From Candidatus Microgenomates bacterium (GTDB lineage Bacteria > Patescibacteriota > Microgenomatia > Daviesbacterales > UBA10151): DNA of 64,000 nucleotides. Within the stretch, counting starts at the first letter, position 1, and each line of letters opens with the position of its first letter. Below, piece after piece: positions 21,717 to 58,193 of this stretch. Location: assembly GCA_016182045.1 (NCBI GenBank), contig JACOYE010000007.1:98121-162120 (forward strand), read 5' to 3'. Under the pieces are notes generated by a model. It did no database searches and was not told the DNA's origin. It saw only the letters and a program-made list of their open reading frames with translations. The position numbers and the translations under genes are program-made.

Positions 21717-21718
21717 CA

Positions 21719-30728: not shown

Positions 30729-30778
30729 TAGAAGGAGTAGATATTGGAGAAAAGTTTGGCTTTGGGGATATTAAATCT

Positions 30779-31497: not shown

Positions 31498-31536
31498 CCC
31501 CCCTTGACAAGTAATTTAGTTTGTGACTAAGATTAG

Positions 31537-31920: not shown

Positions 31921-31965
31921 TAAGTTAGGTTGACCATCATACTAAATTGGTGCTAAGGTTAAGAT

Positions 31966-32313
31966 ATGGGTCCTGATCCAGCTGGCTTAAAACAAATAGA
32001 GGATGTTTTTACCAACATTATCTCGGTGGTGGTGGGGTTGGGTTTTATTACTCTTTTGGTTTTGCTTGTTTGGGCCGGAATTAAATATTTAATCTCAGGG
32101 GGAGAGCCAAAAGCCATCCAGCAGGCTCATCTAATAGTCACCTGGGCTCTTTTGGGAGTCCTATTTTTGGCCATAGCCTGGCTGGTATTACAACTTGTGG
32201 GAGCTTTTACCGGACTTCCTGTAACTATCTTTAATGTCAGAGCCCTTTGCGAAGTGGGCGGTACCCAATTTTGCACCCCCACTCCAAGTCCAAGTCCAAC
32301 TCCCAGCCCTTAG
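31966..32313 (+). CDS. VirB2/TrbC-like pilin paralog 5 (diverged), Pro/Ser/Thr-rich tail
   Basis: LVWAGIKYLISGGEPKAIQQAHLIVTWALLGVLFLAIAW; C-terminal TPTPSPSPTPSP. Confidence 0.45.
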   Translation: MGPDPAGLKQIEDVFTNIISVVVGLGFITLLVLLVWAGIKYLISGGEPKAIQQAHLIVTWALLGVLFLAIAWLVLQLVGAFTGLPVTIFNVRALCEVGGTQFCTPTPSPSPTPSP

Positions 32314-38780: not shown

Positions 38781-40091
38781 CTAATTATTGAGAGGATCTA
38801 ATAACCATTTAAACATTGGAATTACCTTAATTTTGCCATTTTCAAAATCTACACTATCCTCATCTTCAGTTAATATCACTGCAGAATTTATGTTAAGTTC
38901 TTGCATAGCTGCTATTAAAGCCTTAACTTCTCTTTTTTGTGTCTCTTCATCCGCCAGACTTTGACAAACCTGAATTAAAATTTTTTGTTTAGGAAGATAA
39001 AAATCAACTTCTAAATCATTCTGAGTTGTGTAATAATAAATTTCTTCAAACAGTCTTCTTAGGGTTAAGAATACTAGATTTTCCAAAAGTTTGCCTCTAT
39101 TTTCAGAAAAAGAAAATGCCACTGATTTTATTAAACCTGTGTCGATGGCATAAATCTTTTTATTGGCAATTTGCTGTTTTTTGATAGAAAAAGCAAATTT
39201 ATTGATAGTAAACATCAACCAGCTGGTTTGTAGATAATCAATATAGTTTTTAACAGTGTTAACACTACCTAATTTAAGAAGTTCTTTTAACTTATTAAAT
39301 GAAACCAGAGAAGATATATTGCTGATCAAATAAAAACTTAGTTCTTTTAAAGCTTTAGTTTCTTCTATCTTGTAGCGTACAGCCACATCTCTGTAAATCA
39401 CATCATCATATAAAGTTTTGTGTAAGTTAATCTCAGGATACTTTAAGGCATCAGGTATACCCCCAGTGACTATATAATCATTAAAATATCTTTTCAGCTT
39501 GCTCTTTTGTAAGGTGGTTAAATAAGCTAAATTGGGCGTTTTCTGTTGTTTAAATGCTAAAAACTCTGCAAATGAAAATGGGAAAAGTTCAATCGGTGTA
39601 TACCTACCGGTAAGTTTGGTTCCCAGTTCTTTACTAAGTAAAGCAGCATTTGAGCCGGTGATATAAAACTTGCAGCCTTCATCAATCATCCGACGGACAA
39701 ATCTCTCCCAACCTATAACATTTTGTACTTCATCTAATAAAAATATCTTTCTTTGTCCAAAGAATTCCAGTTGGGTCTCATATAAGAGATTAAAATCATC
39801 TGCAGTAAAATTTAAAAATCTTTCATCTTCAAAGTTGACAAAATAATAGTCATCCGACGAATAAAATTTGTGGGCAATTTGAGCAAGCAGTGTAGATTTA
39901 CCAACTCGTCGTAAACCAGAAATTACTACGGCATAAGAAGAATTTGCATACTTTTTAATTTGAATAAGATTTTCTCTGGTTACTCCTAATTCTTTCTTTT
40001 TGAATTGCTCTGACTGATCCAATAACAAAGTTTTCAGTAAATCCTTTTTCATCGTCAGTGAAATTATAACTAATAAAGTTTTCACTGTCAA
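38781..40091 (-). CDS. AAA_14/DUF4143 ATPase (COG1373 family), paralog 2
   Basis: Walker A GLRRVGKSTLL, Walker B FLLDEVQ; likely true start at internal MKKD (40052) given TTGACA-16-TATAAT promoter inside annotated start. Confidence 0.7.
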   Translation of the reverse strand: MTVKTLLVIISLTMKKDLLKTLLLDQSEQFKKKELGVTRENLIQIKKYANSSYAVVISGLRRVGKSTLLAQIAHKFYSSDDYYFVNFEDERFLNFTADDFNLLYETQLEFFGQRKIFLLDEVQNVIGWERFVRRMIDEGCKFYITGSNAALLSKELGTKLTGRYTPIELFPFSFAEFLAFKQQKTPNLAYLTTLQKSKLKRYFNDYIVTGGIPDALKYPEINLHKTLYDDVIYRDVAVRYKIEETKALKELSFYLISNISSLVSFNKLKELLKLGSVNTVKNYIDYLQTSWLMFTINKFAFSIKKQQIANKKIYAIDTGLIKSVAFSFSENRGKLLENLVFLTLRRLFEEIYYYTTQNDLEVDFYLPKQKILIQVCQSLADEETQKREVKALIAAMQELNINSAVILTEDEDSVDFENGKIKVIPMFKWLLDPLNN

Positions 40092-40950: not shown

Positions 40951-42210
40951 CTATTTAAGCTTTGACTGTTCTAAAAGCGCATGAAATGGAAGAACATAAA
41001 TCTTAGTCTTATCTATTACTGCCTCTTGTTTATCGCCAAGATGAATAAGGTATGCTTTTTTTGGCTTATATTTTCTCAAAAAACTTCTGAAAGAGCGAGG
41101 CATTTCTAATTTTGACATCCTTTTATGTTTTGCTTCTAGCGGCACTGCCTCCAAACCTGTAACAAGAATAAAGTCAACCTCAGCCCTATCTCGTGTCCGC
41201 CAAAAATGAATTTGAGTCGGACTCATATCAAATTGCTCCCTAAGCATATTGAAAATGAGATTTTCAAATAAGTGCCCACTTAAAGGTTGCGGTATTCGTG
41301 GCAAACCAAACAGTCCCAGCAGAAAGTTACGAAGTCCAATATCATAAAAATAATATACCGGAGATTTACTAATCTCTTTTCTGACATTCCGGTAATACGG
41401 GCTCACCTTCTTAATTATGAATGTTTTCTCTAAATACCATAGGTAGTGTTGGACTGTTTTATCAGCGATCCCAATAGTTGAAGAAAGCTCGGTAGTATTG
41501 ACCAAGCTGCCGATTTGAGAGGCAATAACCTTAAGCAGGTTAGTAAAAGCTTCTTCTTTCTCAATATTGAGTAGTTTTTTAATATCCTGCTCGATATAGC
41601 TTTTATAGATTTCCTCCATTGCACTTTGTTTTTTCCATACAGTATCAGAGAGAATAACTTGAGGATAACCACCAAAAACCATATATTCCTCAAGAAACCG
41701 CTGCGTCTTGTCTTTCTCCAGGGCAAAAAACTCCCCTAATCTATCTTCATACCTATACTCTGTCCTAAAGTTAATAAATTCCTTTAAACTAATTGGATCA
41801 ATGCTAAACATCCTCTTGCGCCCGGCCATAGATTCGGAGATTTTAGCTTTTAACTCTAAGCTACCCGAACCTGAGATGATAAACTTATACGGTAAGTTCA
41901 TATCAGCAATACCTTTTAAGAAAAGTTCTGCGTTTTCTTTACGTTGAATCTCGTCAATAAACACATAGGCTTTCTCTTTACCAACTTGAAGTTCGATGTA
42001 TGAAATTAACTGACCTTGGGAATCAAAAAAGGGCCTGTGATCATCTATATCAAGGTTTAAAAAAAGAGTTTTCTCTCCTTTTGCCTTTAGTTTACCTTCC
42101 AAATACTTCATCAGGTAAGTTTTCCCTACCTGTCTGGGCCCAATGAGGATTGTCATTTCTTTTTCTGTAAGATGTCCTTCTAAAGCCTGGGTTATCGTTC
42201 TTTTGATCAT
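40951..42210 (-). CDS. AAA_14/DUF4143 ATPase (COG1373 family), paralog 3
   Basis: Walker A GPRQVGKTYLM, Walker B VFIDEIQ. Confidence 0.7.
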   Translation of the reverse strand: MIKRTITQALEGHLTEKEMTILIGPRQVGKTYLMKYLEGKLKAKGEKTLFLNLDIDDHRPFFDSQGQLISYIELQVGKEKAYVFIDEIQRKENAELFLKGIADMNLPYKFIISGSGSLELKAKISESMAGRKRMFSIDPISLKEFINFRTEYRYEDRLGEFFALEKDKTQRFLEEYMVFGGYPQVILSDTVWKKQSAMEEIYKSYIEQDIKKLLNIEKEEAFTNLLKVIASQIGSLVNTTELSSTIGIADKTVQHYLWYLEKTFIIKKVSPYYRNVRKEISKSPVYYFYDIGLRNFLLGLFGLPRIPQPLSGHLFENLIFNMLREQFDMSPTQIHFWRTRDRAEVDFILVTGLEAVPLEAKHKRMSKLEMPRSFRSFLRKYKPKKAYLIHLGDKQEAVIDKTKIYVLPFHALLEQSKLK

Positions 42211-42398: not shown

Positions 42399-42872
42399 TT
42401 AAGTGAGATTTGCTGCCAAAGTAAATCCGAGTTTAGAATACCAATCATCCATAGAGAAAATAACATCAGTATTTAATTTTTTGGCAGTTGCTACAACCAG
42501 TGCATCAAAGACTGTTTTTTTCTTGCTACCTTTTGGGTCAAATACTTTTAAAGCCTCCTTAAGTAAATCTACATCTGTATTTTCTATTGATAACGACCCA
42601 TCTGTTATTCTCTCCACAATCTTAGCAGCAATATCTGACCTTTTAAGTTTTCGTATCAGTGTCGTGATAGTTTCCGTAATTGTGGTTAGGGGAAAAACTG
42701 TTTGAGCATCATGCTGTAATAGTTTGGCAACGGTTTCAACGGCTTTCTGATGACTTTTGTCTTCTTCGTGCAAAATAGCAATTAAAGCATCAGTGTCTCC
42801 TACCACAATCAGTTGTTTTTTAATCCCAGGTGTACTCATCATGTTTTTCAGATAAATCAGCTGGTAAACCAC
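42399..42872 (-). CDS. PIN-domain toxin (VapC-like)
   Basis: LIVVGDTDALIAIL ... conserved D/E positions; probable start at internal MMSTPG. Confidence 0.6.
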   Translation of the reverse strand: MVYQLIYLKNMMSTPGIKKQLIVVGDTDALIAILHEEDKSHQKAVETVAKLLQHDAQTVFPLTTITETITTLIRKLKRSDIAAKIVERITDGSLSIENTDVDLLKEALKVFDPKGSKKKTVFDALVVATAKKLNTDVIFSMDDWYSKLGFTLAANLT

Positions 42873-43547: not shown

Positions 43548-43922
43548 TTAAGCTTTTAAGGCTTTAATATGATATTTCAGTATTTTCTCATCAACAGTAA
43601 TTAGAGTTAATTTCTCTACTTTTGCTTGAGCTATTATGATTCTATCAAATGGGTCTTTATGATAATCCTCTAATACCTCAATTTCTAGAACATGGTCAAT
43701 ATTAATTGGAAGTATAGTAAACAGGCTTTTTTTAATCCCACCTGCAATATCTCTTGGAACTTTCAAACCTTTTCTCTTTTTTATAATAATCTCCCAGACA
43801 GTTGCAACAGAAACAAATACCATATTATTTGGGTCAGAAATTACCTTCTGAAAAGCTTTAGAGAATCTAGTGCTTTTCTCCATAGCCCAAATAAAAACTT
43901 GGGTATCAAGGAGATAATTCAT
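43548..43922 (-). CDS. vapC: PIN-domain toxin VapC
   Basis: LLDTQVFIW...VATVWEIIIK...HKDPFDRIIIAQA classic VapC pattern. Confidence 0.75.
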   Translation of the reverse strand: MNYLLDTQVFIWAMEKSTRFSKAFQKVISDPNNMVFVSVATVWEIIIKKRKGLKVPRDIAGGIKKSLFTILPINIDHVLEIEVLEDYHKDPFDRIIIAQAKVEKLTLITVDEKILKYHIKALKA

Positions 43923-44171
43923 TTAAATATCACCTTCATAAAATAGTTTATTTATTTCCTCATCCTCTTTATCGAAATCTTTAGGAACCCAAACTTTACC
44001 TTTCCATAATCCCAATTTGCGGGGTTTTAACTTTTCTTTATAAGGACTAAGTTTAGCCACAGGTTTGCCTGCTTTGGCAATAATAACCTCCTCCCCTTTG
44101 GAGGTTTTTTCAATAAGTTTAGACAGGTTTGTTTTAGCATCGTGAATGTTTACAACTTGCATGGTAATCAT
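43923..44171 (-). CDS. Phd/YefM-type antitoxin (VapB)
   Basis: 82 aa directly upstream, adjacent without overlap (1-nt apart) with VapC. Confidence 0.6.
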   Translation of the reverse strand: MITMQVVNIHDAKTNLSKLIEKTSKGEEVIIAKAGKPVAKLSPYKEKLKPRKLGLWKGKVWVPKDFDKEDEEINKLFYEGDI

Positions 44172-44232: not shown

Positions 44233-45621
44233 TTAAATTAACATCCCGCCGCATTTATAACAATCTTCGGTACAATAGTTTACTTCACCACAACTGAGGC
44301 AACTTTTACCCTTTTTGCCATTTTCTCCTCCAAAAATTCCACTAAAACGATTGATAATTCCCAGGATAAAACCTGCCGTCACGCTTAAAACATTCCCTAA
44401 AGAAAAACCGCCTCCAATTGAAAATCCTCCTGATAAACCGCATCCAACCGCTACTGCTCTGACAGCCTGGTGGCCTAACCAGTTAATTTCTTCCCATAAA
44501 CTTCTAAAAACAGGCATTAGCTTATGAGTTACAGCTGAAACTGAACTTAAAATTCTATCTTTTATTCCTGTTATCCTTTTCCACATATAATCTGCTCCGT
44601 TTAAAACTGCATTTAAGGTAATTGCCACCTTTTCCGGGCTAAAGATTGAGTCACAAATTGCACTCACCAAAAATTGCATCCTCGCTGTACCTTCCTGAGT
44701 AATTTTCTGAAACTCCTCTTCTTTTAAAGCATTTTTTATTGGTATTAAAATCTCGCTATTGCCCCCTATAATAGGGTTAGCGAGCAACCACTGATCAATT
44801 GGAATATCAACACCATCAAAATAATCCGGCCTTGAAGCAGTTATTATCTCTTCTGCCTGTTCATAACTTAAATCTGAAGCAAACCTAGTCATTTGAACTA
44901 TTCTTCTTTGAGTAAATGGGTCTTCTAAAAGCTCATAACGATCTCGGAAATTATCTTTAAATATAGTATCTTTTACTAAACCTGGTCCTGAAACAACTCC
45001 AGCTTTTAAGCTTATCTGAGCATTGGGATCTGCAAAAGCTTCCTGTATTTTTAAAATACCGATCCTTTCCTGCTCCATTCTTGAAACATCAGGTGATCCT
45101 AGTTGCTTGTAATATTCAATTCCGATTGTTAAAACATCCTCAAAAGCCTGGTTAGGTAAGTCTCTGCTTCTTAATTTACCATCATCGTCAATATCATAGA
45201 TAACAATACTGGTAGCTACATGATACCTTTCTCTTAGAGCTGTTTCTATTTGTTTTATTTCATATAATTTAAACTGCTCTCTTTCCTCTTCGGTTTGCAG
45301 CTGCTCAAATGCGGCTCTTTCCAAAACAGGATTATAATTTCTGATTACCCCTCTTTCTCTTATTCCCAATCTGCTATCAAAAAAACTTTGCAATCTTGCT
45401 ACCCTTATTAAATATTCTTCTATATCCAGGCGGCTTTCTTTTTGTGACTTAGGAGCTTCTGTAGGGGCTGTAATTCGCTCTGTTGGTTGCGCGATAACTA
45501 TTGTATTGTCAAATGAGAAATTTGGCTCATATCTTCCGCCTACATCTGGTTGTACTAAAATATCAATTTCTTTAAAAGTAGATATTGGTGAATGTTCAGC
45601 TGCTTCTGTTCTCATAGCCAT
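44233..45621 (-). CDS. hypothetical protein with C-terminal Gly-rich hydrophobic segment and Cys-rich tail (SCLSCGEVNYCTEDCYKCGG)
   Basis: 462 aa; no recognised catalytic motif. Confidence 0.35.
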   Translation of the reverse strand: MAMRTEAAEHSPISTFKEIDILVQPDVGGRYEPNFSFDNTIVIAQPTERITAPTEAPKSQKESRLDIEEYLIRVARLQSFFDSRLGIRERGVIRNYNPVLERAAFEQLQTEEEREQFKLYEIKQIETALRERYHVATSIVIYDIDDDGKLRSRDLPNQAFEDVLTIGIEYYKQLGSPDVSRMEQERIGILKIQEAFADPNAQISLKAGVVSGPGLVKDTIFKDNFRDRYELLEDPFTQRRIVQMTRFASDLSYEQAEEIITASRPDYFDGVDIPIDQWLLANPIIGGNSEILIPIKNALKEEEFQKITQEGTARMQFLVSAICDSIFSPEKVAITLNAVLNGADYMWKRITGIKDRILSSVSAVTHKLMPVFRSLWEEINWLGHQAVRAVAVGCGLSGGFSIGGGFSLGNVLSVTAGFILGIINRFSGIFGGENGKKGKSCLSCGEVNYCTEDCYKCGGMLI

Positions 45622-47015: not shown

Positions 47016-47765
47016 ATGAAAACAACTCAACAACATCTGGCTTTCGCCGATATCAAAGACGACCTGATTTTTCTAAAGGACGGAGGAGGGGCTTTGGTGT
47101 TACAAACTTCCGCAGTCAATTTTGGATTGTTATCGGCCCGCGAACAGGTGGCAATCATTGCTGCTTTTGCACAACTTCTAAACTCACTTTCTTTTAGCAT
47201 ACAAATTGTTGTCCACTCGGAAAGACTCAATATCTCCTCCTATCTTAATCTGTTGGACCAAGCTAAAAAGAGTCAAACCAATCCCCTTCTGTCCAAACTG
47301 ATGACTTCTTACCGCCAATTTATCCAAACCACCATTAAGGAAAACGAGGTTTTGGATAAAAAATTTTATATAGTCATTCCGCTTTTTAAGCTGGAGGTGG
47401 GACTTACTTCATCCAAAGAAGCACTGGATCAAAAAATTAAGACCGTACTTTTCCCCAGAAGAGATCAACTGATCCGCCAACTTAACAGAGTTGGCCTTAA
47501 GGCCACTCAACTGACTTCAACTAAACTGATCGATCTCTTTTATGATATCTACAACGGTGGGGAAGCAGAATTGTCACCACCTCAACCTTTAAGTGAAGCT
47601 GAACAGGTAAAACTTAATCAAGTCCAGCCAGTAATGGCACCTACAATTCAAAGCCAAAGCCCACTTCAGACCATCCCCCCTCAAGGACCAACCCCTTACC
47701 AACCATTGAGCAGTCAACCAACCAAAACCCATCCGTTTGTGGTGGAAGAATTGGAGGAAACTTAA
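47016..47765 (+). CDS. VirB4 extreme-N-terminal-like domain protein (separate ORF)
   Basis: HLAFADIKDDLIFLKDGGGALVLQTSAVNFGLLSAREQ...LNSLSFSIQIVVH resembles the first ~150 residues of VirB4/TrbE ATPases. Confidence 0.35.
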   Translation: MKTTQQHLAFADIKDDLIFLKDGGGALVLQTSAVNFGLLSAREQVAIIAAFAQLLNSLSFSIQIVVHSERLNISSYLNLLDQAKKSQTNPLLSKLMTSYRQFIQTTIKENEVLDKKFYIVIPLFKLEVGLTSSKEALDQKIKTVLFPRRDQLIRQLNRVGLKATQLTSTKLIDLFYDIYNGGEAELSPPQPLSEAEQVKLNQVQPVMAPTIQSQSPLQTIPPQGPTPYQPLSSQPTKTHPFVVEELEET

Positions 47766-47857
47766 ATTTTAAATTACAAATTTGAAATTTTAATTCAAAT
47801 TAAAATGTATTAATTTTTAATGTTTTAAACATTTAGTCATTTAAAATTGATTAAAAA

Positions 47858-49633
47858 TTGAAAATTATGAAGATACCAAAATTATTTAAAAAACCCAAAG
47901 CCCAAGAGGTTATTACTCCTCAATTAACCATTGAGGATGTCATTGCTCCTGCTGAGCTGGAGGTGGATTTTAATGAGTTGAAGATCAACAATTTTCATTT
48001 TAGGACTTATTTCGTGTCCAACTATCCCAGATTTATTGAACCTAATTGGCTGGAGCCTTTAATCTCTTTTGATCACTCTCTTTTGATTTCCATGTTTATT
48101 TATCCAACTCAACCGGCCGGTGTTTTGGATGAGTTAAAAAGAAAAATTGCCGAAATGGAAGCCACCATCCAAACCGACATAGAGAGGGGTAAGGCAGTTG
48201 ATCCGACAGTAGAGGTAGCATTGGAGGATGCCCGAACGCTTCAGGAACAACTGGTGAAAGGATCGGAAAGATTTTTCCAGTTTGCCTTGTACGTAACAGT
48301 CCCTGCTGCTACCAAAGAGGAGTTGCATAATACCTCCAAGCTGGTGGAGTCAACTTTGGCCTCTTTATCTATCACCTCCCAGCCGACCACCCTGCAGATG
48401 GAGGATGGTTTTAAATCAACCATCCCACAAGGGTTAGATCTTTTGAATCTGACTCACAATATGGATACCACCTCTTTGGCCACCACCTTCCCTTTTGCCT
48501 CATCGGAGTTGACTGCCAACGAAGGCATCATGTACGGCATTAACGAGCACAACGATTCCTTAATTTTGTTTGACAGATTCAGTTTGGAGAATGCCAATTC
48601 GGTTATCTTCGCCAAATCCGGGGCAGGCAAGAGCTATTTTGTCAAACTGGAAGCCTTAAGATCTTTAATGTTTGGAACAGAAATACTAATTATTGATCCT
48701 GAGCAGGAATATTTATCTTTATCTCAGGCAGTAGGTGGTGAGTATATTAATTTTTCTCCCTCTTCTGCTGTTAAAATCAATCCTTTTGATATGTCTTCTC
48801 AAGTATCGGAGGAAAATGAGTTAGGTAGAAAAATCCTCTCTTTGACAGCCTTTCTAAAAATTGTCCTGGGAAACTTATCTGCCCAGGAAGCAGCTATTTT
48901 GGACCGGGCCTTAAAGCAAACTTATTCGCTCAAAGGCATTACCGATGACCCCAAAACACAAAGCAATCCGCCAGCCGGCGGACCACCTTTGATGGAAGAT
49001 TTATACAAAGTGTTAATCGGCATGGAGGAACAACCCGCCCTGGAGCTGGCAGCCAGACTGGAAAGATTTATCAAAGGATCGCTGTCTGGTATTTTCTCTC
49101 AACAATCAAATGTGGACTTATCCAATTCCTTCACGGTTTTTTCTTTAAGAGATCTTCCGGATCAGCTAAGACCGCTGGCCATCCATATGATTTTAGATTA
49201 TGTCTGGACTAAGATCAGAAGCAAGTTAAAAAAAAGAATTATGGTGGTGGATGAGGCCTGGTATTTGATGAAAAATCCAGATTCTGCCGACTTTTTGGTG
49301 GACATGGCCAAAAGAGCTCGCAAATATTATTTGGGGCTGACCACCCTCACCCAAGACATCGAGGATTTTTTGGGGACCGAGAGAGGCAAGGAGATTATTT
49401 CCAACTCATCAATCCAAGTGCTACTTAAACAGGCTCCGGCCTCAATTGATCTGCTGGCTCAAATATTTAACTTATCAGAGGGGGAACAAAGACTTTTGCT
49501 ATCAGAAGGGATCGGTCAAGGGCTATTTTTTGCAGGCAATACTCATGTGGCTATGAGAGTGGTAGCCTCACCCCAGGAACATCAGTTGATCACCTCCAAT
49601 CCACAAGAAATATTGGCAAGACAAAATGTATAA
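47858..49633 (+). CDS. VirB4/TraC/TrbE-type T4SS ATPase
   Basis: Walker A AKSGAGKSY, IIDPEQEY, Walker B VVDEAW (DEAW hallmark), LTTLTQ motif. Confidence 0.8.
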   Translation: MKIMKIPKLFKKPKAQEVITPQLTIEDVIAPAELEVDFNELKINNFHFRTYFVSNYPRFIEPNWLEPLISFDHSLLISMFIYPTQPAGVLDELKRKIAEMEATIQTDIERGKAVDPTVEVALEDARTLQEQLVKGSERFFQFALYVTVPAATKEELHNTSKLVESTLASLSITSQPTTLQMEDGFKSTIPQGLDLLNLTHNMDTTSLATTFPFASSELTANEGIMYGINEHNDSLILFDRFSLENANSVIFAKSGAGKSYFVKLEALRSLMFGTEILIIDPEQEYLSLSQAVGGEYINFSPSSAVKINPFDMSSQVSEENELGRKILSLTAFLKIVLGNLSAQEAAILDRALKQTYSLKGITDDPKTQSNPPAGGPPLMEDLYKVLIGMEEQPALELAARLERFIKGSLSGIFSQQSNVDLSNSFTVFSLRDLPDQLRPLAIHMILDYVWTKIRSKLKKRIMVVDEAWYLMKNPDSADFLVDMAKRARKYYLGLTTLTQDIEDFLGTERGKEIISNSSIQVLLKQAPASIDLLAQIFNLSEGEQRLLLSEGIGQGLFFAGNTHVAMRVVASPQEHQLITSNPQEILARQNV

Positions 49634-49642
49634 TGGAACTGT

Positions 49643-51868
49643 ATGGCATTACGTGATGTCAAAAACTTTAGATTTTTATACAAGGCTTTAGAATATAAAT
49701 ACCTTCACCCACAAGCCAGTGGATATTTGGGGTTGGATTACGATCCTCACATTTATAAACTATTTTATGACACATTAACTTTTATCCAACAGACAGCGCA
49801 TGTGGATCTGAGAGATTATTTAAATATTAAAGATCCTAAAGTTTTAGAAAAATTTTATAAAGGTTTGGCCATAGATATAAGGTTAAGATTTTTAAGTAAA
49901 CCTGAAAGTGTGGCCACAGATGCTCGATATATTTTGACTGATGAGTATTATCAACAATATCCACAAGATTCAGAGGCAGAAAAAGAAGTTTTAGGGGCGC
50001 AAACATCCTCAACTGCATCTTCAGAATCTCAACAGCCAGGAATAGGATTCCCCTTTCCGGCAGGTTTAAGCGGACAGAGAATCCCCAGGAGAGTAGTTTA
50101 CATTGCACCCCAGACTAAAACTCCCCAAGCTAAATTATACGTGGCTGATAAAAGCGGCAGGGTGGTGGAAGAAAGAACCATCACTCCCACCTCAACAATT
50201 GTTAAGAAACCGGAAACACCATCAGTCTCAGAACACCCTCTGGGTGGAAAAACCATCAAAGCTGCTGAACAGCCAAAATTGGTGGTTGCAGAAGCACCTT
50301 CAAAGCAAATCTTTATTGCTGACAAAAGTGGGGCAATTAAAGGAATCCACAATATCAAATCTCCCAGCTGGTTAAAAACTTTCGGCTCAAATACCCAGAT
50401 ATTTACCAAAAAAGCTGTTAATCGTCTGGCTTCGGGCTTGACTAATTTCTTAAAGGGAGCGGGAGGAGCAGGGGGAGGTCTTTTGGGAGGTCTTGCTGGG
50501 ACAGGAGGCAGATTTTTAGGTGGCGCAGGAATTGGTGGTCTTAACTCCCTGGTATCTTTTTCTAATCAAATATCCAGAGGAAGTATTATTAAAGGCCCTC
50601 CAGGAAAATTCTGGCTGATTCTTTTGGGAGTGTTTCTTTTGGTAGGCACTATTGCCGCCATATCCCCTACCGGGCAACCAACTCCCACCGCTCAAGCAGG
50701 ACCAGTTGGACCTATAAATCTGTTAAGTTGTCAGCTTACCAGATCTGACCAAACACCGATACAAGGCTCTATTAAAAGCTCTATTCTGGTTAGATTATTC
50801 CAGGAAGCCGAACTTACCACTACAGTACCCGCAGCAGTTTTGGCAGGGATTGCCAGATTGGAAAACCCTAATTTTGTGATAAATGCCGATGATAATCATG
50901 ATGCCTTTTATGATAGAAATTTTACTGATCTGACAACTTGTACTCCTCATTTTGGCATGAGTCCCACCGGAGCATTGGGTCTAATGCAACTCCAACCGCC
51001 TGGCACAACAGGTTCATTTCCCTCAGGACTAGAACAGGGAGCTAAATTTTTAAATAAGACCTTGCAAGAGGTAAATTATTGTAATGTTAGAGAAAATATA
51101 TTCCTGGCTGCCGGATTTATTTTAAAAAAGCTACAAGGTTATAATATCGGGGATGGAACCAGGTGGGATCCTGCCTGGACAAATGACCAGAATGTTATCT
51201 ACAAGGTAGCGGAAAGTTTTTATGGCTGTCTACCCTATGGAGGTTCAAACCCTACCAAATGTGAGGGACCTTACAGTTATGGCCAGGATCTTTGGGCCAG
51301 TATCCAATCCTGTCAATCTATAGCATCACAACCTCTGGGCTGTCCAGCCATAGGAACTATCACTGGCCCTTACGGGTATAATATCCCTGATTATAATTAT
51401 CAGAACGAAGGATGTACCCCTCTTCAAAACTGCCATAACGGCATTGACATAGGTGCTTCTTTAGGTGATACGCTAGTATCAACCATTGAGGGAATAGTCA
51501 CAGAAATAGGTGACAATCATCCTCAAAGAGGTGATTATATCCAAATCTCAAATCAATCATCTGCGCTTGTCATAACCTATGAGCATATGTTAGATATCAG
51601 TGTACAAAAGGGAGAACAAATACAAAGGGGTCAAAAAGTAGGAACGGTTGGGGAGGGCGGTGAGGGTGTCAGTGGTCCTCATCTACATTATAAAATCCAA
51701 AAAAACGGAAACCTCCTTAATCCTTTTAAATATCTGGGTGATTCTTCTCCTCCTCTCCCATCACATACTCTGGCTTCATCTGATAATCTGGCAGATAACG
51801 ATTATGCTAATGTTCCCATTACTCCTGAAATAAGGGATAACTGGGGGCAGTGTAATAAATCACCATGA
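49643..51868 (+). CDS. bifunctional cell-wall hydrolase: lytic transglycosylase (SLT-like) + M23 metallopeptidase, membrane-anchored (VirB1/CwlT/TcpG analogue)
   Basis: TM at ~aa 325; GALGLMQLQP (SLT); HNGIDIG ... GPHLHY (M23 HxxxD / HxH). Confidence 0.7.
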   Translation: MALRDVKNFRFLYKALEYKYLHPQASGYLGLDYDPHIYKLFYDTLTFIQQTAHVDLRDYLNIKDPKVLEKFYKGLAIDIRLRFLSKPESVATDARYILTDEYYQQYPQDSEAEKEVLGAQTSSTASSESQQPGIGFPFPAGLSGQRIPRRVVYIAPQTKTPQAKLYVADKSGRVVEERTITPTSTIVKKPETPSVSEHPLGGKTIKAAEQPKLVVAEAPSKQIFIADKSGAIKGIHNIKSPSWLKTFGSNTQIFTKKAVNRLASGLTNFLKGAGGAGGGLLGGLAGTGGRFLGGAGIGGLNSLVSFSNQISRGSIIKGPPGKFWLILLGVFLLVGTIAAISPTGQPTPTAQAGPVGPINLLSCQLTRSDQTPIQGSIKSSILVRLFQEAELTTTVPAAVLAGIARLENPNFVINADDNHDAFYDRNFTDLTTCTPHFGMSPTGALGLMQLQPPGTTGSFPSGLEQGAKFLNKTLQEVNYCNVRENIFLAAGFILKKLQGYNIGDGTRWDPAWTNDQNVIYKVAESFYGCLPYGGSNPTKCEGPYSYGQDLWASIQSCQSIASQPLGCPAIGTITGPYGYNIPDYNYQNEGCTPLQNCHNGIDIGASLGDTLVSTIEGIVTEIGDNHPQRGDYIQISNQSSALVITYEHMLDISVQKGEQIQRGQKVGTVGEGGEGVSGPHLHYKIQKNGNLLNPFKYLGDSSPPLPSHTLASSDNLADNDYANVPITPEIRDNWGQCNKSP

Positions 51869-52320
51869 TCAGTAAAAAAAGCGTTTTGATTGTAGTTTTT
51901 ATTTTGGGAATGGTTTTGGTTTCGCTGAAATTAAGCTTACCCAAGACAGATAGTTTGCCCCAAACAAGCAAACAGCAGGTTGTGAACCAGAATGTAAGCG
52001 AAGCCTCTCCTCAAATTATTTCCACCAAACCAGATCCTTTGGAAGAGGCTATTATTTCCTCAACAGAAGTTATTGAAATTACATTTAACAGATCTTTGGA
52101 AAATGAGGGGGAACTTAAAGTGAGGATTGACCCAAAGATTGATTTTGAAATCAAGCTTTCCCAGGATCGCAAAGTGGGCAAGATCATTCCTAAAACCCCA
52201 TATGAGCTGGGTACCACCTACACCTTATTTATTGGCCCGGATACCAAGTTTGACGGGGTGGGAAGATGGGGAGAAGAAAAGATTTTCCACTTTAAAACAA
52301 TAACCTACAGGGGGGTGTGA
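51865..52320 (+). CDS. small secreted/membrane-anchored protein with Ig-like beta domain
   Basis: N-terminal TM/signal then beta-rich 100 aa. Confidence 0.35.
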   Translation: MISKKSVLIVVFILGMVLVSLKLSLPKTDSLPQTSKQQVVNQNVSEASPQIISTKPDPLEEAIISSTEVIEITFNRSLENEGELKVRIDPKIDFEIKLSQDRKVGKIIPKTPYELGTTYTLFIGPDTKFDGVGRWGEEKIFHFKTITYRGV

Positions 52321-52324
52321 TGGT

Positions 52325-53440
52325 TTATATCTTCACCGGCATGACGATAAATTCCAACCCCTCCACTCCCACCGGCTTAATCAAACAAGGCGATAAAGAC
52401 CCGGAAAATTCCATCATTAGCTGTGAAGAGGGGGCATTGCTGATGGCATCTAATAAAAATTTGGAGTTAAAGGCAATCTGCATTTGATCCCCCTCTATCT
52501 GAGCATCGACCTGATTTTGTTGGCTGCCCAACTCTTTGGCTGAAGATTCCAGACTGATCTGGTTATTTTGAGCGGTCAAAGTGGTAATATTGGTTTCGTT
52601 TTTGGCAAAAACTAAAGCCAGTTTGATGGCTTTCAACAGCTCCTCCCGATCTAGCAGCGCTCTAGTTTTAATCTCGGTGGGAATAATTTTTTCCCAGGAA
52701 GGAAACTGACCCTCAATCAACCTTGAGGAAATAATAGTTTGGCCAATGGTAAAGATGGCCTGATTTTGGTTTGGCGATAGAGAAATATTAACTTCACCAG
52801 CATTCTCTTCCCCAATAACTCTTAACACTTCCTCAAAAGTTCTTTTGGGTATTAGGCTTTTAAACCCTTCTGCTCCTCCGCCTTTGGCGTTGCTTGGTAC
52901 CAATTGTACTTGCCTGTGAGCCAGCCTAAAACCGTCTGTGGCCACAAAATCCAATTTTCCGTCTTTAACGTCAGTCAGAATTCCAGTCAAAACAGGTCTG
53001 CCTTCATCAACCGCAGCAGCATAAAGAATTTGAGCTGATGTTAAAAAAACCTCCTTGGGGAAGGTGACCCCCTTACCTTCCGATAGAGGGATAACAGGAA
53101 ATTCCGAGGCCAAGATGCCATTAATTTGAGCCTTTAGTTTGCCGGATTGAATAGATAGGATTTCTCCTGTTGCTTCCAGCTCGATTTTGCTTTGACCCAA
53201 ACCCGAGACCAGATCAACCAAAGTTTTGGCAGGAATTGTCAGCTCACCTGATGAAACTCCTTCTACCGAGACAAATTTGATCACCCCCACTTCCAAATTG
53301 GTGGCGGCAATTTTTAATTTATTACCTTCCAGGGACAATAAAATGTTATCTAAAACCGGTAAGGTAGATCGAACCCCAACAGATCTGCTAACTGATTGTA
53401 AAACAGGAAGTAAGTCTTGCTGTAATACGGAAAACTTCAT
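52325..53440 (-). CDS. dnaN: DNA polymerase III beta sliding clamp DnaN
   Basis: full-length three-domain clamp, MKFSVLQQDLL...PVLDNILL. Confidence 0.9.
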   Translation of the reverse strand: MKFSVLQQDLLPVLQSVSRSVGVRSTLPVLDNILLSLEGNKLKIAATNLEVGVIKFVSVEGVSSGELTIPAKTLVDLVSGLGQSKIELEATGEILSIQSGKLKAQINGILASEFPVIPLSEGKGVTFPKEVFLTSAQILYAAAVDEGRPVLTGILTDVKDGKLDFVATDGFRLAHRQVQLVPSNAKGGGAEGFKSLIPKRTFEEVLRVIGEENAGEVNISLSPNQNQAIFTIGQTIISSRLIEGQFPSWEKIIPTEIKTRALLDREELLKAIKLALVFAKNETNITTLTAQNNQISLESSAKELGSQQNQVDAQIEGDQMQIAFNSKFLLDAISNAPSSQLMMEFSGSLSPCLIKPVGVEGLEFIVMPVKI

Positions 53441-53442
53441 CT

Positions 53443-53895
53443 TTAATCTCCTTTCCGAGAAGTGACAAACTTTTGTATTTCTTCCTCAGTCACCTTAATC
53501 AATCTGAAATTTACTCTTCCGGCAGCAATTAGGTTTTTAATGTGTTTTTCCTCATCTGTCAATAGGTTGTTTAAACCGCTTTTGACTTCAATAAAATCAA
53601 TTCTTTGGTTATTTTTAATACCAATAAAATCAATCGGCCAACCTAAAGGGATAATCCGGTCATAATCATATCTCAGCTCGGCATAAGTTAAAAGCTCGGC
53701 CATTCTGCCTTTTTGGGGATTAATGGAACCTTGGATAACCTGTAACACTTTGGTGGGTAGTTCTTGTAAACCTTTATATAAATCAATCAAATCCGTGGGA
53801 ATATCTTGTGGTTTTCTCCCATGTAATCTGCCAATTAAATAAGCAACTACCAAAAATAGAATTAATATTCCGATTACCCACCAATTAGTATTCAT
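53443..53895 (-). CDS. membrane-anchored PD-(D/E)xK-like nuclease-fold protein (hypothetical)
   Basis: N-terminal TM; D...IDFIEVK motif; located between dnaA and dnaN. Confidence 0.35.
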   Translation of the reverse strand: MNTNWWVIGILILFLVVAYLIGRLHGRKPQDIPTDLIDLYKGLQELPTKVLQVIQGSINPQKGRMAELLTYAELRYDYDRIIPLGWPIDFIGIKNNQRIDFIEVKSGLNNLLTDEEKHIKNLIAAGRVNFRLIKVTEEEIQKFVTSRKGD

Positions 53896-54075
53896 AAACT
53901 TATCAACAAACTGTTCGATTATACATTAATTTTAAATATATTAGTAATATTAATATACTAGGTGGATATGTTGATAAACTTCACCTATAAATTCAATTTT
54001 CGATTTAATTTCGTGTTAAAGCAGTGTTAATTTTTAGTGGATAAGATGTGGAAAAGTGACAATTCCGGTGGATAA
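53896..54075. promoter_or_regulatory. putative oriC: AT-rich unwinding element plus >=4 DnaA-box-like 9-mers (GTGGATAAG, TGTGGAAAA, GGTGGATAA, GGTGGATAT)
   Basis: seen directly at 53961, 54037-54045, 54047-54055, 54066-54076. Confidence 0.5.
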
Positions 54076-55392
54076 TTAAGCAGCCAACCTGCCTCTTATT
54101 TCTGATAACATTCTTTGTATCTCCCGGTCAGTGCTTACTAAATTCTTAATTTTATCTCTGCCGTGCATAACTGTGGTGTGATCTCTTTTACCTAAAATTT
54201 GTCCAATTTTTTCCACAGTTATATTAAGGTGTTCACTTAGAATAAACATGGCCATATGCCTGGGGAAAACCAGCTCTTTTTGTCTTTTTGCTCCAATTAG
54301 ATCTTTTTGAGTTAAGTTAAAATAATCACAAACTGCCTCCAGCACCTGCTTTGGTTCAATTTTTAATCCCTGCCGGGTAGGTATTTTAAGGTGTTGACTA
54401 ATATTTGCTGTGGTGGGAAGTAAATTTTGAGCTTTCAAAAGCTGCAGGATTCCCATCAACCTTCCCTCAAGCTCTCTGATATTGGTTTCAAAAGATGAGG
54501 CCAACATCTGCAAAGCCGCCTCCTCTAAAACTACCCGTTGCTCTTCGCACTTGGCTCTTAAGATGGCCATCCTGGTGTCGAAATCAGGGGCTTGGATGTC
54601 AATCATTAAGCCGCCGGCAAAGCGCGATTTTAACCTGTCCTCCAGTTTGGCAATTTCATGAGGGGATCTGTCTGAAGTAATCACAATCTGGGAATTCTTA
54701 CCAAGCAGCTCATTAAAAGTATGGAAAAACTCCTCTTGGGTTCCCTCCCTGCCTGAAAAAAACTGGATATCATCTATTAGTAAAACTTGGGGGGAGCGGT
54801 ATTTGGTTCTTAAATCTCCCATCCGGTTAGTTTTGATGGCCTCAACATAATCATTCAAAAACTTCTCAGATGGGCTATAAATGATTTTAGTTTGTGGTTT
54901 TTTATTTAAGATGGCATTGCCGATGCCTATCATCAGATGGGTTTTGCCCACCCCTGTTCCTCCGTAGATAAATAGAGGGTTATATGAGATACCTGGGTTT
55001 TGGGTCACTGATTGGGCTGCGGCATAAGCCACATTATTGGTTGGTCCCACCACAAAATTTGCTAAAGTATATTTGGGGTTAAGATACGATGTTTGAGTTT
55101 GAAAAGGTTGAAAAAATTCTTCATCTTTTTCCTGTGTTTCAATGTCATTTTCTTTGATAACAAATAAAACATTAATCTTTTTTTCCAGGATCTTAGTTAA
55201 AACTTCCTCGATTAAAGATTTGTATTTTTTATTTAAAGTTTCTTTGATAAAAGCTGAAGAAGTGCTCAAAGTCACATTTTCACCGTCAATAGACTTCAAA
55301 AGGGTTTTTAAAAAGTAAGCCTTAAGGTTATCAGGTCCTACCGCTGGTTTAATCAGTTGTAATAATTTGTGCCAAACTCTCAAGTTGTCCAT
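54076..55392 (-). CDS. dnaA: chromosomal replication initiator DnaA
   Basis: Walker A GGTGVGKTHLM, LLIDDIQF, C-terminal DNA-binding domain DHTTVMHGRDKI. Confidence 0.9.
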   Translation of the reverse strand: MDNLRVWHKLLQLIKPAVGPDNLKAYFLKTLLKSIDGENVTLSTSSAFIKETLNKKYKSLIEEVLTKILEKKINVLFVIKENDIETQEKDEEFFQPFQTQTSYLNPKYTLANFVVGPTNNVAYAAAQSVTQNPGISYNPLFIYGGTGVGKTHLMIGIGNAILNKKPQTKIIYSPSEKFLNDYVEAIKTNRMGDLRTKYRSPQVLLIDDIQFFSGREGTQEEFFHTFNELLGKNSQIVITSDRSPHEIAKLEDRLKSRFAGGLMIDIQAPDFDTRMAILRAKCEEQRVVLEEAALQMLASSFETNIRELEGRLMGILQLLKAQNLLPTTANISQHLKIPTRQGLKIEPKQVLEAVCDYFNLTQKDLIGAKRQKELVFPRHMAMFILSEHLNITVEKIGQILGKRDHTTVMHGRDKIKNLVSTDREIQRMLSEIRGRLAA

Positions 55393-55413
55393 GGTTAGAT
55401 TAAGCTATTCACA

Positions 55414-55444
55414 AGTGTGGAAAACTTTCTTGATTTTATCCACA
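55414..55444. promoter_or_regulatory. DnaA boxes upstream of dnaA (TGTGGAAAA at 55414-55422; perfect TTATCCACA at 55436-55444)
   Basis: seen directly. Confidence 0.6.
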
Positions 55445-55477
55445 ATTTAATCCAGCAGGGGATTCTTTAGCAAGATG

Positions 55478-55521
55478 GAGGAACTATTAAAAACTAGATC
55501 AAAATTTTTGTCGTTGCAAGG
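55478..55521. repeat. 45-bp direct repeat DR-left (GGAACTATTAAAAACTAGATCAAAATTTTTGTCGTTGCAAGG)
   Basis: near-identical copy at 56032-56076. Confidence 0.65.
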
Positions 55522-55562
55522 ATTCCCTTTACATATTGCAGCTGGTGGTGTAATATAAAAAT

Positions 55563-55754
55563 ATGAACAAGATTAAAAATCCGATGGTGAATTATGAGAA
55601 TAAATGGGTTGCCTTATCTTCGGACAAAAAAAAGGTTGTAGCAGCTGGGAGTTCAATCAAGCAATTAGAGAAAAAGCTCAAAGGATTCAAGAAAGAAGAA
55701 GTAATACTTACTTTTGTTCCCCCTTTTGATAAAGTGCTATCGCTTCAATGTTAA
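55563..55754 (+). CDS. small protein, DUF5678-like (hypothetical)
   Basis: NKWVALSSDKKKVVAAGSSIKQLEKKL...EEVILTFVP. Confidence 0.35.
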   Translation: MNKIKNPMVNYENKWVALSSDKKKVVAAGSSIKQLEKKLKGFKKEEVILTFVPPFDKVLSLQC

Positions 55755-56014
55755 ATAGTAAGGTTTTAACTTACGATTATTTAAGGTTTCTTGAGAAGGA
55801 TGAGAAAACTCAGGAATTTACCAGAGAAATATTTGCACCGTTTATCTCCGTAAGAATTTCCTTTGACCATAAGCTAAGTTTCCCTTTTCATGCACTCGTT
55901 GATTCCGGCGCCGCAAGAAATTTACTGCCTGCGGCTTTAGGGGAACAAATCCAAAGAGTTATTTTTGATGAAAACTTCCACCAAGTGCAACTAATTCTTA
56001 AAAGTGAAAGCTAA
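55748..56014 (+). CDS. retropepsin-like aspartic peptidase fragment (clan AA, DSGA motif)
   Basis: HALVDSGAARNLLP = D-S-G-A active-site signature; 88 aa, short for a full domain. Confidence 0.45.
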   Translation: MLNSKVLTYDYLRFLEKDEKTQEFTREIFAPFISVRISFDHKLSFPFHALVDSGAARNLLPAALGEQIQRVIFDENFHQVQLILKSES

Positions 56015-56031
56015 TTAAAGCTAATTAAGGA

Positions 56032-56076
56032 ACTGTTAAAAACTAGATCAAGTTTTTTTGTCATTGCGAGGTATTG
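56032..56076. repeat. 45-bp direct repeat DR-right (GGAACTGTTAAAAACTAGATCAAGTTTTTTTGTCATTGCGAGG)
   Basis: pairs with 55478-55521; also contains the S-family core TTTGTCATTGCGAGG. Confidence 0.65.
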
Positions 56077-56108
56077 TATCGATGAGTTAAATTTAGTAAA
56101 CTACCCTC

Positions 56109-56246
56109 ATGCCAAAGAGAACTTATCAGCCCAAGAAATTAAAAAGAGTCAGAAAGCATGGTTTTAGAAAAAGGATGGCTACTCATGATGGAGCTAAGGT
56201 ATTAAAAAGAAGAAGGATCAGGGGTAGAAAAAGGTTGACGGTATAA
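56109..56246 (+). CDS. rpmH: 50S ribosomal protein L34
   Basis: hand-translated [45 protein letters not shown]; not in ORF track (45 aa). Confidence 0.9.
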
Positions 56247-56584
56247 TGCTATCCAAAGAAAAACGACTTAATCTTAAAATAGACTTTAAATGGGTGGCTT
56301 CTGGTAGAAAACTGGAAACTAAATACTTAAAACTTTTTGTAAAGTCTGGGGATAATAGAACACCTCGGGTTGGTATAGCTTTGGGGAGTAAATCATTTAA
56401 AAAGGCCACCCAAAGAAATAGGGCCAAAAGAGTAGCTTCAGCTGCTTTCGGGATGCTCTATAAAAAGCTCCCGCCTAATGCTAATATAATAGCTCTTCCC
56501 AAAACTGGTGTACTTGAGGTAAAATCATCTGATGTGCTATTGGATTTGGAGAAGACATTAAAGCATGAAAAATTTATTGATTAA
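56246..56584 (+). CDS. rnpA: RNase P protein component RnpA
   Basis: 112 aa basic protein directly after rpmH (TAATG overlap); RnpA-like KRLNLKIDFK...RNRAKR. Confidence 0.85.
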   Translation: MLSKEKRLNLKIDFKWVASGRKLETKYLKLFVKSGDNRTPRVGIALGSKSFKKATQRNRAKRVASAAFGMLYKKLPPNANIIALPKTGVLEVKSSDVLLDLEKTLKHEKFID

Positions 56585-56765
56585 TTTAATTAATTTTTAC
56601 CAGACATATTTATCCTTTGACCGAGGCGTGTTATCCATTTTTGCCCCAGGCGGAGCATGTAAATATCCCATGTCTTGTTCTGAATATAGTAAACAAGCAA
56701 TCATCAAATATGGCCTCATCCGTGGCGGATGGATGGGCTTAACAAGAATCTGGAGCTGCAGATGA
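56565..56765 (+). CDS. yidD: membrane protein insertion efficiency factor YidD
   Basis: CKYPMSCSEY motif (cf. C-x-F-x-PSCS-x-Y). Confidence 0.8.
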   Translation: MKNLLINLINFYQTYLSFDRGVLSIFAPGGACKYPMSCSEYSKQAIIKYGLIRGGWMGLTRIWSCR

Positions 56766-57607
56766 GCGGAATAGGTGACATTTTTAATTTAGTTTTCTTT
56801 GGTCCGGTAATTAATCTGTTAGTTTTAATATTCCAAGGATTACAAGCAATTCACATTCCAGGGGCTTTAGGTTTTTCCATAATAATCTTGACTGTTTTAA
56901 TCAGGCTTTTGGTTTGGCCATTTATGGCTAGTCAGATTAAAGCTACCAAAAAAATGGCTGATTTAAAACCACATTTAGATGTCCTTAAACAAAAGCATAA
57001 GGATGACAAGCAGGCATTTGCTCAGGCCCAGATGGCACTTTATAAAGAACATGGAGTAAATCCTGCCGGAGGCTGTTTACCGGCCTTAATTCAGATCCCA
57101 GTTTTTATCGCACTTTATCAATCGATCATTAATATTTTACCTGGAGCTGGAGGGCATATAGACAAGATAAACTCTCTTTTGTACTTTCCGCAGCTTAAGT
57201 TACCTTCTACCTTGGACCCAAGTTTCTTAGGTCTTAATTTAGGCATTAAACCTGCTGAGTTTACATCTCACGGGGTGTTTCTTCTGTTAATACCAACTAT
57301 CACAGCAGGATTAACTTTTGTTCAATCTAAAATGACTTTGCCAAAACCGATTAAGCATCACCTGGGTGAACCTCCTAAGGAGACAAAAGAAAAAGAAGGC
57401 ATGGAAGAAAGTATGGGCCAAGTCCAATCTCAAATGGTTTATCTTATGCCAATAATGATTGGCTATTTTGCTTTTACCTTCCCAATTGGACTTGCAATTT
57501 ATTGGAATGTCTATACAATACTGGGGATAGTTCAGCAATATAGGGTTGCAGGCTGGGGAGGGATGGCTGGTATGGCGGGAAAGTTCGGAATAAAGACTGT
57601 AAAATAG
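56729..57607 (+). CDS. yidC: membrane protein insertase YidC (short Gram-positive/CPR type)
   Basis: 5 TM helices, conserved position after rnpA-yidD. Confidence 0.85.
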   Translation: MDGLNKNLELQMSGIGDIFNLVFFGPVINLLVLIFQGLQAIHIPGALGFSIIILTVLIRLLVWPFMASQIKATKKMADLKPHLDVLKQKHKDDKQAFAQAQMALYKEHGVNPAGGCLPALIQIPVFIALYQSIINILPGAGGHIDKINSLLYFPQLKLPSTLDPSFLGLNLGIKPAEFTSHGVFLLLIPTITAGLTFVQSKMTLPKPIKHHLGEPPKETKEKEGMEESMGQVQSQMVYLMPIMIGYFAFTFPIGLAIYWNVYTILGIVQQYRVAGWGGMAGMAGKFGIKTVK

Positions 57608-57616
57608 GTAATGAAT

Positions 57617-57693
57617 ATTCCGACCGAGATCCCTCGACTCGCTTCGCTCGCTCGGGATGACAAAATGCGTTGGGAGATTATACGCATTTTGTC
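57617..57693. repeat. S-family repeat copy B (ATTCCGACCGAGATCCCTCGACTC...GCTCGGGATGACAAAAT) plus 11-bp-stem hairpin GACAAAATGCG/CGCATTTTGTC
   Basis: seen directly between yidC and jag. Confidence 0.55.
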
Positions 57694-58193
57694 AAATGGA
57701 GACACAAACTATGGAAAATCAGCTAAGTGAAGTACTAGACAATCTATTGGGACTGCTTCTTTTGGAAGGAAGCTATGAGATTGAGGAAAAAGATGAAGCC
57801 TTTTTAGTCTCTGTGGAAACCAAAGATGCAGGAAGATTGATTGGTTTTAGGGGGGAATCATTAGAGGCTCTACAATTAATTGTCAATCAAATCATATCTC
57901 AAAAGATGAGAAAGGAAGAAGAGTTTAAAAGAGTAATTTTGGATGTTGAGGGATGGAGGAAAAAGAAAGAGGAGGAGCTTTCTCAAAGAGCTGAGAGTTG
58001 GGGTAAACAGGTTTTGGAAACAGGCCAGGCTTTGGAGCTTGAACCAATGTCTTCCTGGCAAAGAAGGATTGTACATACAACTATTGGCGAAATGGAAGGT
58101 GTGGAGAGTGAGAGCATTGGTGAAAGTAGGGATAGGCATGTAGTAATAAAACTCAAAACTCAAATGTCAAATGTCAAAACTAAAGAGGATTGA
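57657..58193 (+). CDS. jag: Jag/KhpB-like R3H RNA-binding protein
   Basis: KH-like + R3H C-terminus (WQRRIVHTTIGEMEGVESESIGE); true start probably METQTMENQ. Confidence 0.8.
   Translation: MTKCVGRLYAFCQMETQTMENQLSEVLDNLLGLLLLEGSYEIEEKDEAFLVSVETKDAGRLIGFRGESLEALQLIVNQIISQKMRKEEEFKRVILDVEGWRKKKEEELSQRAESWGKQVLETGQALELEPMSSWQRRIVHTTIGEMEGVESESIGESRDRHVVIKLKTQMSNVKTKED

Follow-up and report, generated by a model that had tools for sequence, protein, structure and literature searches.

Is the VirB4-type ATPase encoded on contig JACOYE010000007.1 of a Candidatus Microgenomates bacterium (assembly GCA_016182045.1) a gene broken in two, or is a motor built from two genes the native state of this system? 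The question is raised by two adjacent open reading frames (ORFs), designated here ORF1 and ORF2, within a 64-kb stretch of that contig (the window, whose own numbering is used for all coordinates below). The original prediction, made from the DNA letters alone, read them as one VirB4 apparently split in two by an AT-rich spacer. The analyses described below indicate that the pair is very probably a native two-gene VirB4 motor of a Patescibacteria (Microgenomates/Daviesbacteria-like) type IV secretion system (T4SS). The split is a standard, named arrangement (the TrsD/TraD family, PF26593), and should therefore be taken as neither damage nor artefact.

ORF1 occupies positions 47016-47765 of the forward strand, encodes 249 aa, and contains the peptide HLAFADIKDDLIFLKDGGGALVLQTSAVNFGLL quoted in the original prediction. 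ORF2 lies on the same strand in a different reading frame and ends at 49633. Both ORF1 boundaries and the ORF2 end were placed correctly at the outset, but the ORF2 start at 47858 must be moved, as that TTG is merely the first possible start codon in a mechanically generated ORF list. The ATG at 47867 opens the peptide MKIPKLFKKPK, and because this peptide aligns to where the closest orthologues begin (MKLPNLFKK...), ORF2 most likely begins there and would encode 588 aa. An exact-protein look-up of ORF2 read from this ATG returned no record. The spacer thus spans 101 bp (47766-47866) rather than the 92 bp (47766-47857) first proposed, and is as AT-rich as had been stated; it includes one of only two 100-bp stretches in the window with a G+C content of 14% or less. 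A simple frameshift had been excluded from the beginning, and rightly so: the frame of ORF2 differs from that of ORF1, and several stop codons close each of the three frames over the 101 bp, ruling out programmed frameshifting or readthrough between the two genes. Over 1,653 bases, an independent Logan assembly of run SRR12113430 agrees with the window at every position; the matching part takes in ORF1 with its stop codon and 74 nt at the start of the spacer, inside which the Logan contig terminates.

Comparison with full-length VirB4 profiles places the two proteins in collinear order on the same models. ORF1 and ORF2 align, respectively, with positions 132-284 (E 2.9e-9) and 282-893 of NF045975 (VirB4_plasma), with positions 52-170 and 272-780 of TIGR02746 (TraC-F-type), and with positions 38-190 and 293-348 of the 375 in PF11130. 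ORF2 scores 388.7 bits against NF045971 (conju_CD1110; curated cutoff 325, E 5.4e-116) over profile positions 178-733 of 752; it begins at position 178, and so falls short of a full-length single chain that would include the first ~177 positions. Its match to TIGR00929 likewise begins at profile position 238. Since only ~12-40 N-terminal residues of ORF2 are left unaligned, it cannot carry its own copy of the missing domain. What ORF2 does hold is, at aa ~1-217, the latter half of the N-terminal domain and, at aa 218-577, the ATPase C-terminal domain, which the VirB4 C-terminal domain structure PDB 4AG5 matches over these residues (E 1.2e-47); PF19044 is also recognized (E 2.4e-24). Walker A (SGAGKS, 48617-48634, aa 251-256) and Walker B (VVDEAW, 49244-49261, aa 460-465) are both intact, and a TTLTQD motif is found at 49340-49357.

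An AlphaFold2 (AF2) model of ORF1 residues 1-195, computed from a diverse 43-sequence alignment, reached a predicted local distance difference test score (pLDDT) of 87.8. In a Foldseek search of the PDB with this model, the best 14 matches are all chains of the R388 TrwK/VirB4 protein (prob 0.98-1.00, TMq 0.47-0.57), and the matches that follow this set are unrelated proteins with TMq values of ~0.2. A full-length AF2 model of ORF1, built from 30 close homologues (63-77% identical), attained a pLDDT of 55 and was set aside as too poor for use.

Natural fusions join the same two pieces in the same order. The fused protein P0173 (787 aa) aligns over residues 9-204 with ORF1 residues 3-185 (50% identity) and over residues 213-772 with ORF2 residues 26-587 (65% identity); only eight residues separate the two alignments, and P0173 has lost the ORF1 tail as well as ORF2 residues 1-25. 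Its gene occurs in at least two independent metagenome assemblies (locus L083, 4001-6364; locus L084, 877-3240), where the gene order is PrgI, fusion, M23 peptidase, a 332-aa gene and dnaN. The Carboxydocella plasmid pCCELLA01 (L085) encodes a 754-aa fused protein with an ORF1-like N-terminus, followed by an M23 peptidase. To judge from these alignments, P0173 is Rosetta-stone evidence that the two window proteins are likely to work as one unit. Taken together, the collinear profile matches, the TrwK/VirB4 fold match and the natural fusions support the assignment of ORF1 aa 1-185 as the first half of the VirB4 N-terminal domain, and of ORF2 as the remainder with the ATPase core, which is how the original prediction had divided the protein; ORF1 did not align with an unrelated family. 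The accompanying statement that the two ORFs together have the ~840 aa of a canonical VirB4 was, however, overstated, as ORF1 residues ~186-249 form a P/Q-rich low-complexity tail that has no VirB4 counterpart and the natural fusion has 787 aa.

ORF1 is one member of a large family of mostly standalone proteins. The indexed database holds 2,227 homologues, the best 120 of which are all standalone and 236-269 aa long, and a protein identical to ORF1 (P0001) is deposited as 'hypothetical protein HYT18_01345' of Candidatus Microgenomates bacterium. PF26593 (TraC-like) is listed in the precomputed Pfam annotation of P0001 and of all 120 listed homologues. Cluster representatives, scanned exhaustively with HMMER, yielded 1,806 matches; among the best 150, 149 are not fused and one is, and the domain is N-terminal in every full-length protein, a few being fragments. 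The homologues range in total length from 200 to ~600 aa by virtue of their variable low-complexity tails.

Whether orthologous loci encode one gene or two, a check proposed with the original prediction, was examined in 80 loci from species-representative genomes (L001-L080) of Daviesbacteria, Gottesman-, Beckwith-, Chisholm-, Ames- and Levybacteria, WWE3, Dojkabacteria and some mislabelled metagenome-assembled genomes. Both the ORF1 and ORF2 parts are present in 75 loci, and in all 75 they are split genes in the order PrgI-like match (tblastn with the PrgI-family ORF of the window), ORF1 homologue, and VirB4 directly downstream. The loci nearest to that of the window are from Daviesbacteria. 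Stop and start codons overlap or abut in ~45 of the 75 loci, mostly as a 4-nt ATGA, and an ATGA-type junction is found in six of the eight nearest relatives. Such an overlap would couple translation of the two genes and so could match the production of their proteins. Longer gaps between the two genes (47, 74, 75, 100 and 191 bp) occur sporadically in other lineages. Of the 75 loci, 49 have dnaN no more than 6 kb away. One apparent 842-aa fused ORF, in L052, was rejected because it consists of two same-frame genes with a stop codon between them. The VirB4 gene of L015 (3814-7509) encodes ~1,230 aa and carries an intein (Intein_splicing and LAGLIDADG_3) inserted at the P-loop; the VirB4 ORFs of L014 and L026 are similarly enlarged (~1,230 aa), with the alignment broken near residues 251-256.

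Outside the Patescibacteria, tblastn searches with ORF1 detect similar sequences on 393 plasmid records, mainly from Bacillus and Clostridium; one C. difficile record has the split order PrgI, a 322-aa protein and a 640-aa ATPase. The same searches match haloarchaeal plasmids (eight Haladaptatus, three Natronosalvus and two Haloplanus records), which suggests that the N-terminal module may also occur in archaeal conjugation-like systems.

The closest characterized parallel is the TrsD-TrsE pair of the Staphylococcus aureus plasmids pGO1/pSK41 (MPF_FATA), which likewise has a VirB3-like gene, a small homologue of the VirB4 N-terminus, a shortened ATPase and a hydrolase downstream; the order in pGO1 is trsC-trsD (227 aa)-trsE (672 aa)-trsF-trsG (CHAP). 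Comparison by hhalign of a 43-sequence ORF1 profile (A2) with pGO1 TrsD gives a probability of 96.2% and an E-value of 2.1e-9 over 180 columns. ORF2 matches pGO1 TrsE with an E-value of 2e-46, the alignment starting at residues 44 and 56, near both N-termini. ORF2 and TrsE thus lack exactly the region that ORF1 and TrsD supply, which points to fission rather than duplication. The two systems differ in that identity is only ~20% and pGO1 TrsD has neither a P/Q-rich tail nor an end motif. In addition, the plasmid pGO1 is conjugative and encodes a relaxase, a coupling protein and a CHAP hydrolase, whereas the window cluster is chromosomal, encodes an M23 hydrolase and lies beside dnaA/dnaN. Relative to the single-chain VirB4 proteins (R388 TrwK, PDB 7O42/7O43/8RTD, and the CD1110 and Mbov_0397 families), ORF1 and ORF2 together have the same domains in the same order, but the chain is cut after approximately the first half of the N-terminal domain, and a disordered tail has been added to the piece before the cut. 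Gene boundaries at the VirB4 N-terminus are likewise fluid among partners in the VirB3-VirB4 fusions (e.g., of Campylobacter plasmids) cited in PMC12102498; those are fusions, whereas the window shows a fission with PrgI as a separate gene.

In R388 TrwK the N-terminal domain comprises residues 15-400, is wrapped by VirB3, mediates VirB4 dimerisation and carries the VirB8 tails (PMC9259494). From this structure and the natural fusions we infer that ORF1 most likely docks in trans on the N-terminal part of ORF2 and thereby completes the VirB4 N-terminal domain. Because VirB3 wraps that domain in R388, ORF1 would also connect the hexameric ATPase with PrgI as its anchor in the membrane, whose gene, the first of the block, lies 6 nt upstream.

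Several observations weigh against this reading. The ORF1 match to NF041427 (TrsD/TraD), at 34.9 bits (E 1.4e-8) over profile positions 26-200 of 201, is far below the curated cutoff of 200, which marks ORF1 as distantly related to this staphylococcal/enterococcal family and not as one of its strict members. The Foldseek E-values are modest (2.6e-3), and Foldseek gives no residue range for the aligned part of TrwK. The ORF1 family profile found no true match among PDB sequences, a chance one only (His-tRNA ligase, E 0.48). With the spacer in place, the translational coupling of the relatives is lost. Finally, the long variable tails and conserved end motifs suggest that the standalone protein has gained properties beyond VirB4 completion.

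The spacer is probably ordinary intergenic DNA that has replaced the ATGA overlap. It could instead be a functional insert, an internal promoter or translational uncoupler from which the ATPase is expressed independently of ORF1, and we consider this rather unlikely. The gaps within the block are 6, 101, 9 and -4 nt, leaving the spacer as the sole long one in a tightly packed set of genes, and gaps of 47-191 bp occur independently at the same junction in other lineages. The last codons of ORF1, GTGGTGGAAGAATTGGAGGAA (47745-47762), hold a Shine-Dalgarno (SD)-like GGAGGA, which in relatives with the ATGA overlap (among L001-L008) stands a few nucleotides before the ORF2 start and here is more than 100 nt away from the ATG. 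Against a functional insert, the scanned region has 12 promoter-like matches where shuffled sequences give 8.0 +/- 2.6, near expectation, and the only forward-strand match in the spacer overlaps the ORF2 start. No terminator-like site was found in the spacer, and its predicted RNA fold is not better than those of shuffled sequences (z = -1.24). Inverted repeats in the spacer (42-nt arms, 76%) are at the level expected from AT-only sequence. The spacer has no copies in the window or in L001-L080, where there are short AT-rich chance matches only, and its sequence is neither repeated nor conserved elsewhere. Moreover, SD-dependent coupling may not matter here, because the starts of the PrgI-family ORF, ORF1 and ORF2 each follow a brief A/T-rich stretch (aaattt/aaaatt) that contains no SD.

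A second alternative makes ORF1 an accessory or regulatory protein paralogous to the VirB4 N-terminus, recruiting a partner or substrate through its tail motif, for example, and is not the missing piece of the ATPase. The tail itself gives this idea its appeal. ORF1 ends in a motif in which H239, P240, F241, V243, E244, E245 and L246 are invariant across 30 homologues; HPFVVEEL(E/D) is confined to the Daviesbacteria-like clade, and another clade ends in LPPLPEI/LPPIAEI. In standalone TrsD-like proteins (P0121-P0269) the disordered P/Q/S/T-rich tails measure ~20 to ~400 residues and finish with such clade-specific motifs, and the fused proteins and pGO1 TrsD are without them. According to PMC12102498, no function is assigned to TrsD, and trsD genes of Gracilibacteria are not adjacent to virB4. 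A paralogue is nonetheless very unlikely: the fission described above is not a duplication, the fused proteins retain only eight linker residues and drop the tail, and the two genes are usually translationally coupled, the two roles being compatible in any case.

A related proposal, which we regard as decidedly unlikely, is that the N-terminal piece became a module of its own after fission, its tail motif docking on a partner so that attachment of the motor to PrgI is regulated or sub-stoichiometric, with the spacer tuning the ratio. Candidate partners would be the basic N-terminus of the ATPase, a coupling protein or a substrate. Co-occurrence of the acidic ORF1 end motif with the basic ORF2 N-terminus was examined across clades and rejected: no pattern emerged, as basic N-termini are widespread and the motif is restricted to the Daviesbacteria-like clade.

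Recent disruption or misassembly of a single virB4, which would leave ORF1 and ORF2 as pseudogene fragments, could appeal to an unusually AT-rich, low-complexity spacer that none of the six closest relatives having the ATGA overlap possesses, to the Logan contig end within it and to the fused versions known elsewhere, but is barely credible given that the ORF1 stop and a separate ORF2 start are kept in 75 of 75 loci, that standalone homologues exceed 2,000, that ORF1 has its own conserved C-terminal motif and ORF2 its own conserved N-terminus, that the independent assembly reproduces the junction as far as it reaches, and that the spacer parts two already separate genes.

The two-gene motor belongs to an operon-like block encoding a PrgI-family (VirB3-like) protein, the TrsD-like ORF1, VirB4, an M23 hydrolase and an Ig-like protein, which adjoins dnaN/dnaA (Table 1).

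Table 1. Features of the VirB4 locus and its surroundings in the 64-kb window.
Feature	Coordinates	Strand	Basis
T4SS pilin (VirB2-like) array, at least 4 genes	28896-32313	+	PF18895 above cutoff
PrgI-family (VirB3-like) membrane protein, 348 aa	45963-47009	+	Pfam PF12666 PrgI, 35.6 bits vs cutoff 27, residues 5-93
ORF1 globular domain, aa 1-185, TrsD-like; counterpart of first half of VirB4 N-terminal domain	47016-47570	+	Profiles, hhalign, AF2/Foldseek, PF26593
ORF1 P/Q-rich low-complexity linker, aa ~186-238	47571-47729	+	Composition; pLDDT <50 in full-length model
ORF1 conserved C-terminal motif HPFVVEELEET and stop	47730-47765	+	Invariant residues in 30 homologues
AT-rich intergenic spacer, 101 bp	47766-47866		9.8% G+C
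ORF2, VirB4-type ATPase without first ~180 canonical residues, 588 aa	47867-49633	+	NF045971, PF19044, 4AG5, pGO1 TrsE
741-aa protein with C-terminal M23 peptidase domain	49643-51868	+	PF01551, E 3.5e-20
151-aa Big_5 (bacterial Ig-like) protein, last in block	51865-52320	+	PF13205, 24.5 bits vs cutoff 23.6; 4-nt overlap with M23 gene
dnaN (52325-53440), small Holliday-junction-resolvase-like ORF, dnaA (54076-55392)	52325-55392	-	Pfam

The 741-aa protein is a probable cell-wall hydrolase of the system, in the role of VirB1; the Carboxydocella plasmid and the two loci with the fused gene, L083 and L084, also have an M23 gene 3' of VirB4. The PF18895 pilin genes (28896-29903, 31030-31497, 31537-31920 and 31966-32313) lie 14 kb upstream and probably belong to the same secretion system. 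They are followed by ORFs of 611 aa (32353-34188, forward strand) and 1,474 aa (34203-38627, reverse strand), neither with a Pfam match, which could encode divergent VirB6-like or surface components. A Pfam scan of 26 window ORFs revealed no VirB6, coupling protein or relaxase; it was not an exhaustive search of the window for these. The dnaN, dnaA, rnpA, yidC and jag/KhpB set spans 52325-58193 and the cumulative GC-skew minimum falls near 52-54 kb, which together mark the replication origin region and place the cluster there.

Between the pilin and Pfam-unmatched genes and the T4SS block, all on the reverse strand, are two AAA_14/DUF4143 ATPase genes (38781-40091 and 40951-42210), and two PIN-domain toxin genes (42399-42872 and 43548-43922) with a small antitoxin-like ORF adjoining (43923-44171); an AAA_14/DUF4143 gene also adjoins PrgI in L083. 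An AdoCbl-II riboswitch aptamer (RF01689; 45677-45756, reverse strand; 44.3 bits vs a gathering score of 36.5) is situated just upstream of a 462-aa ORF (44233-45621, reverse strand) that is divergent from the T4SS block and has no Pfam match; the C-terminal region of this ORF is hydrophobic and rich in Gly, with CxxC...CxxC at the terminus. A B12 riboswitch with a membrane-like ORF in a reduced Patescibacteria genome may denote an unrecognised component of cobalamin uptake. A tmRNA gene (RF00023, 103 bits) lies at 21357-21717 on the forward strand.

The arrangement in the window is an instance of one already known. In the Patescibacteria T4SS as described by Quinonero-Coronel et al. (2025, Microbial Genomics, PMC12102498), trsD stands beside virB4, with PrgI/VirB3, pilin arrays, the vicinity of dnaA/dnaN and the Microgenomates all represented, as here; the cluster is said to be often near dnaA/dnaN and VirB2-like pilin arrays to be common in Microgenomatia. 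The same paper states the homology of TrsD to VirB4, names TrsD as the most abundant Patescibacteria T4SS component (2,272 homologues in 2,221 assemblies, 1,664 with virB4), and describes it as known elsewhere solely from the pGO1 subclass of MPF_FATA. The main text of Guglielmini et al. 2014 makes no mention of TrsD. The loss of the overlap and the spacer, the tail motifs, the rare fusions and the TrwK fold match were not found in the passages of PMC12102498 matching our search terms; they are refinements and define no new kind of system.

For annotation, we recommend the name TrsD-like VirB4 N-terminal domain protein for HYT18_01345, and no pseudogene flag for the pair. TrsD is reported to be essential in Ca. 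Southlakia epibionticum (PMC12102498). According to Wang et al. 2023, as cited there, the T4SS is essential in that species, and the epibiotic lifestyle of Patescibacteria is reported to depend on it. The fold match and the fusions give ORF1 a concrete proposed role, that of the VirB3-binding half of the motor's N-terminal domain, which would sharpen a published observation rather than constitute a discovery.

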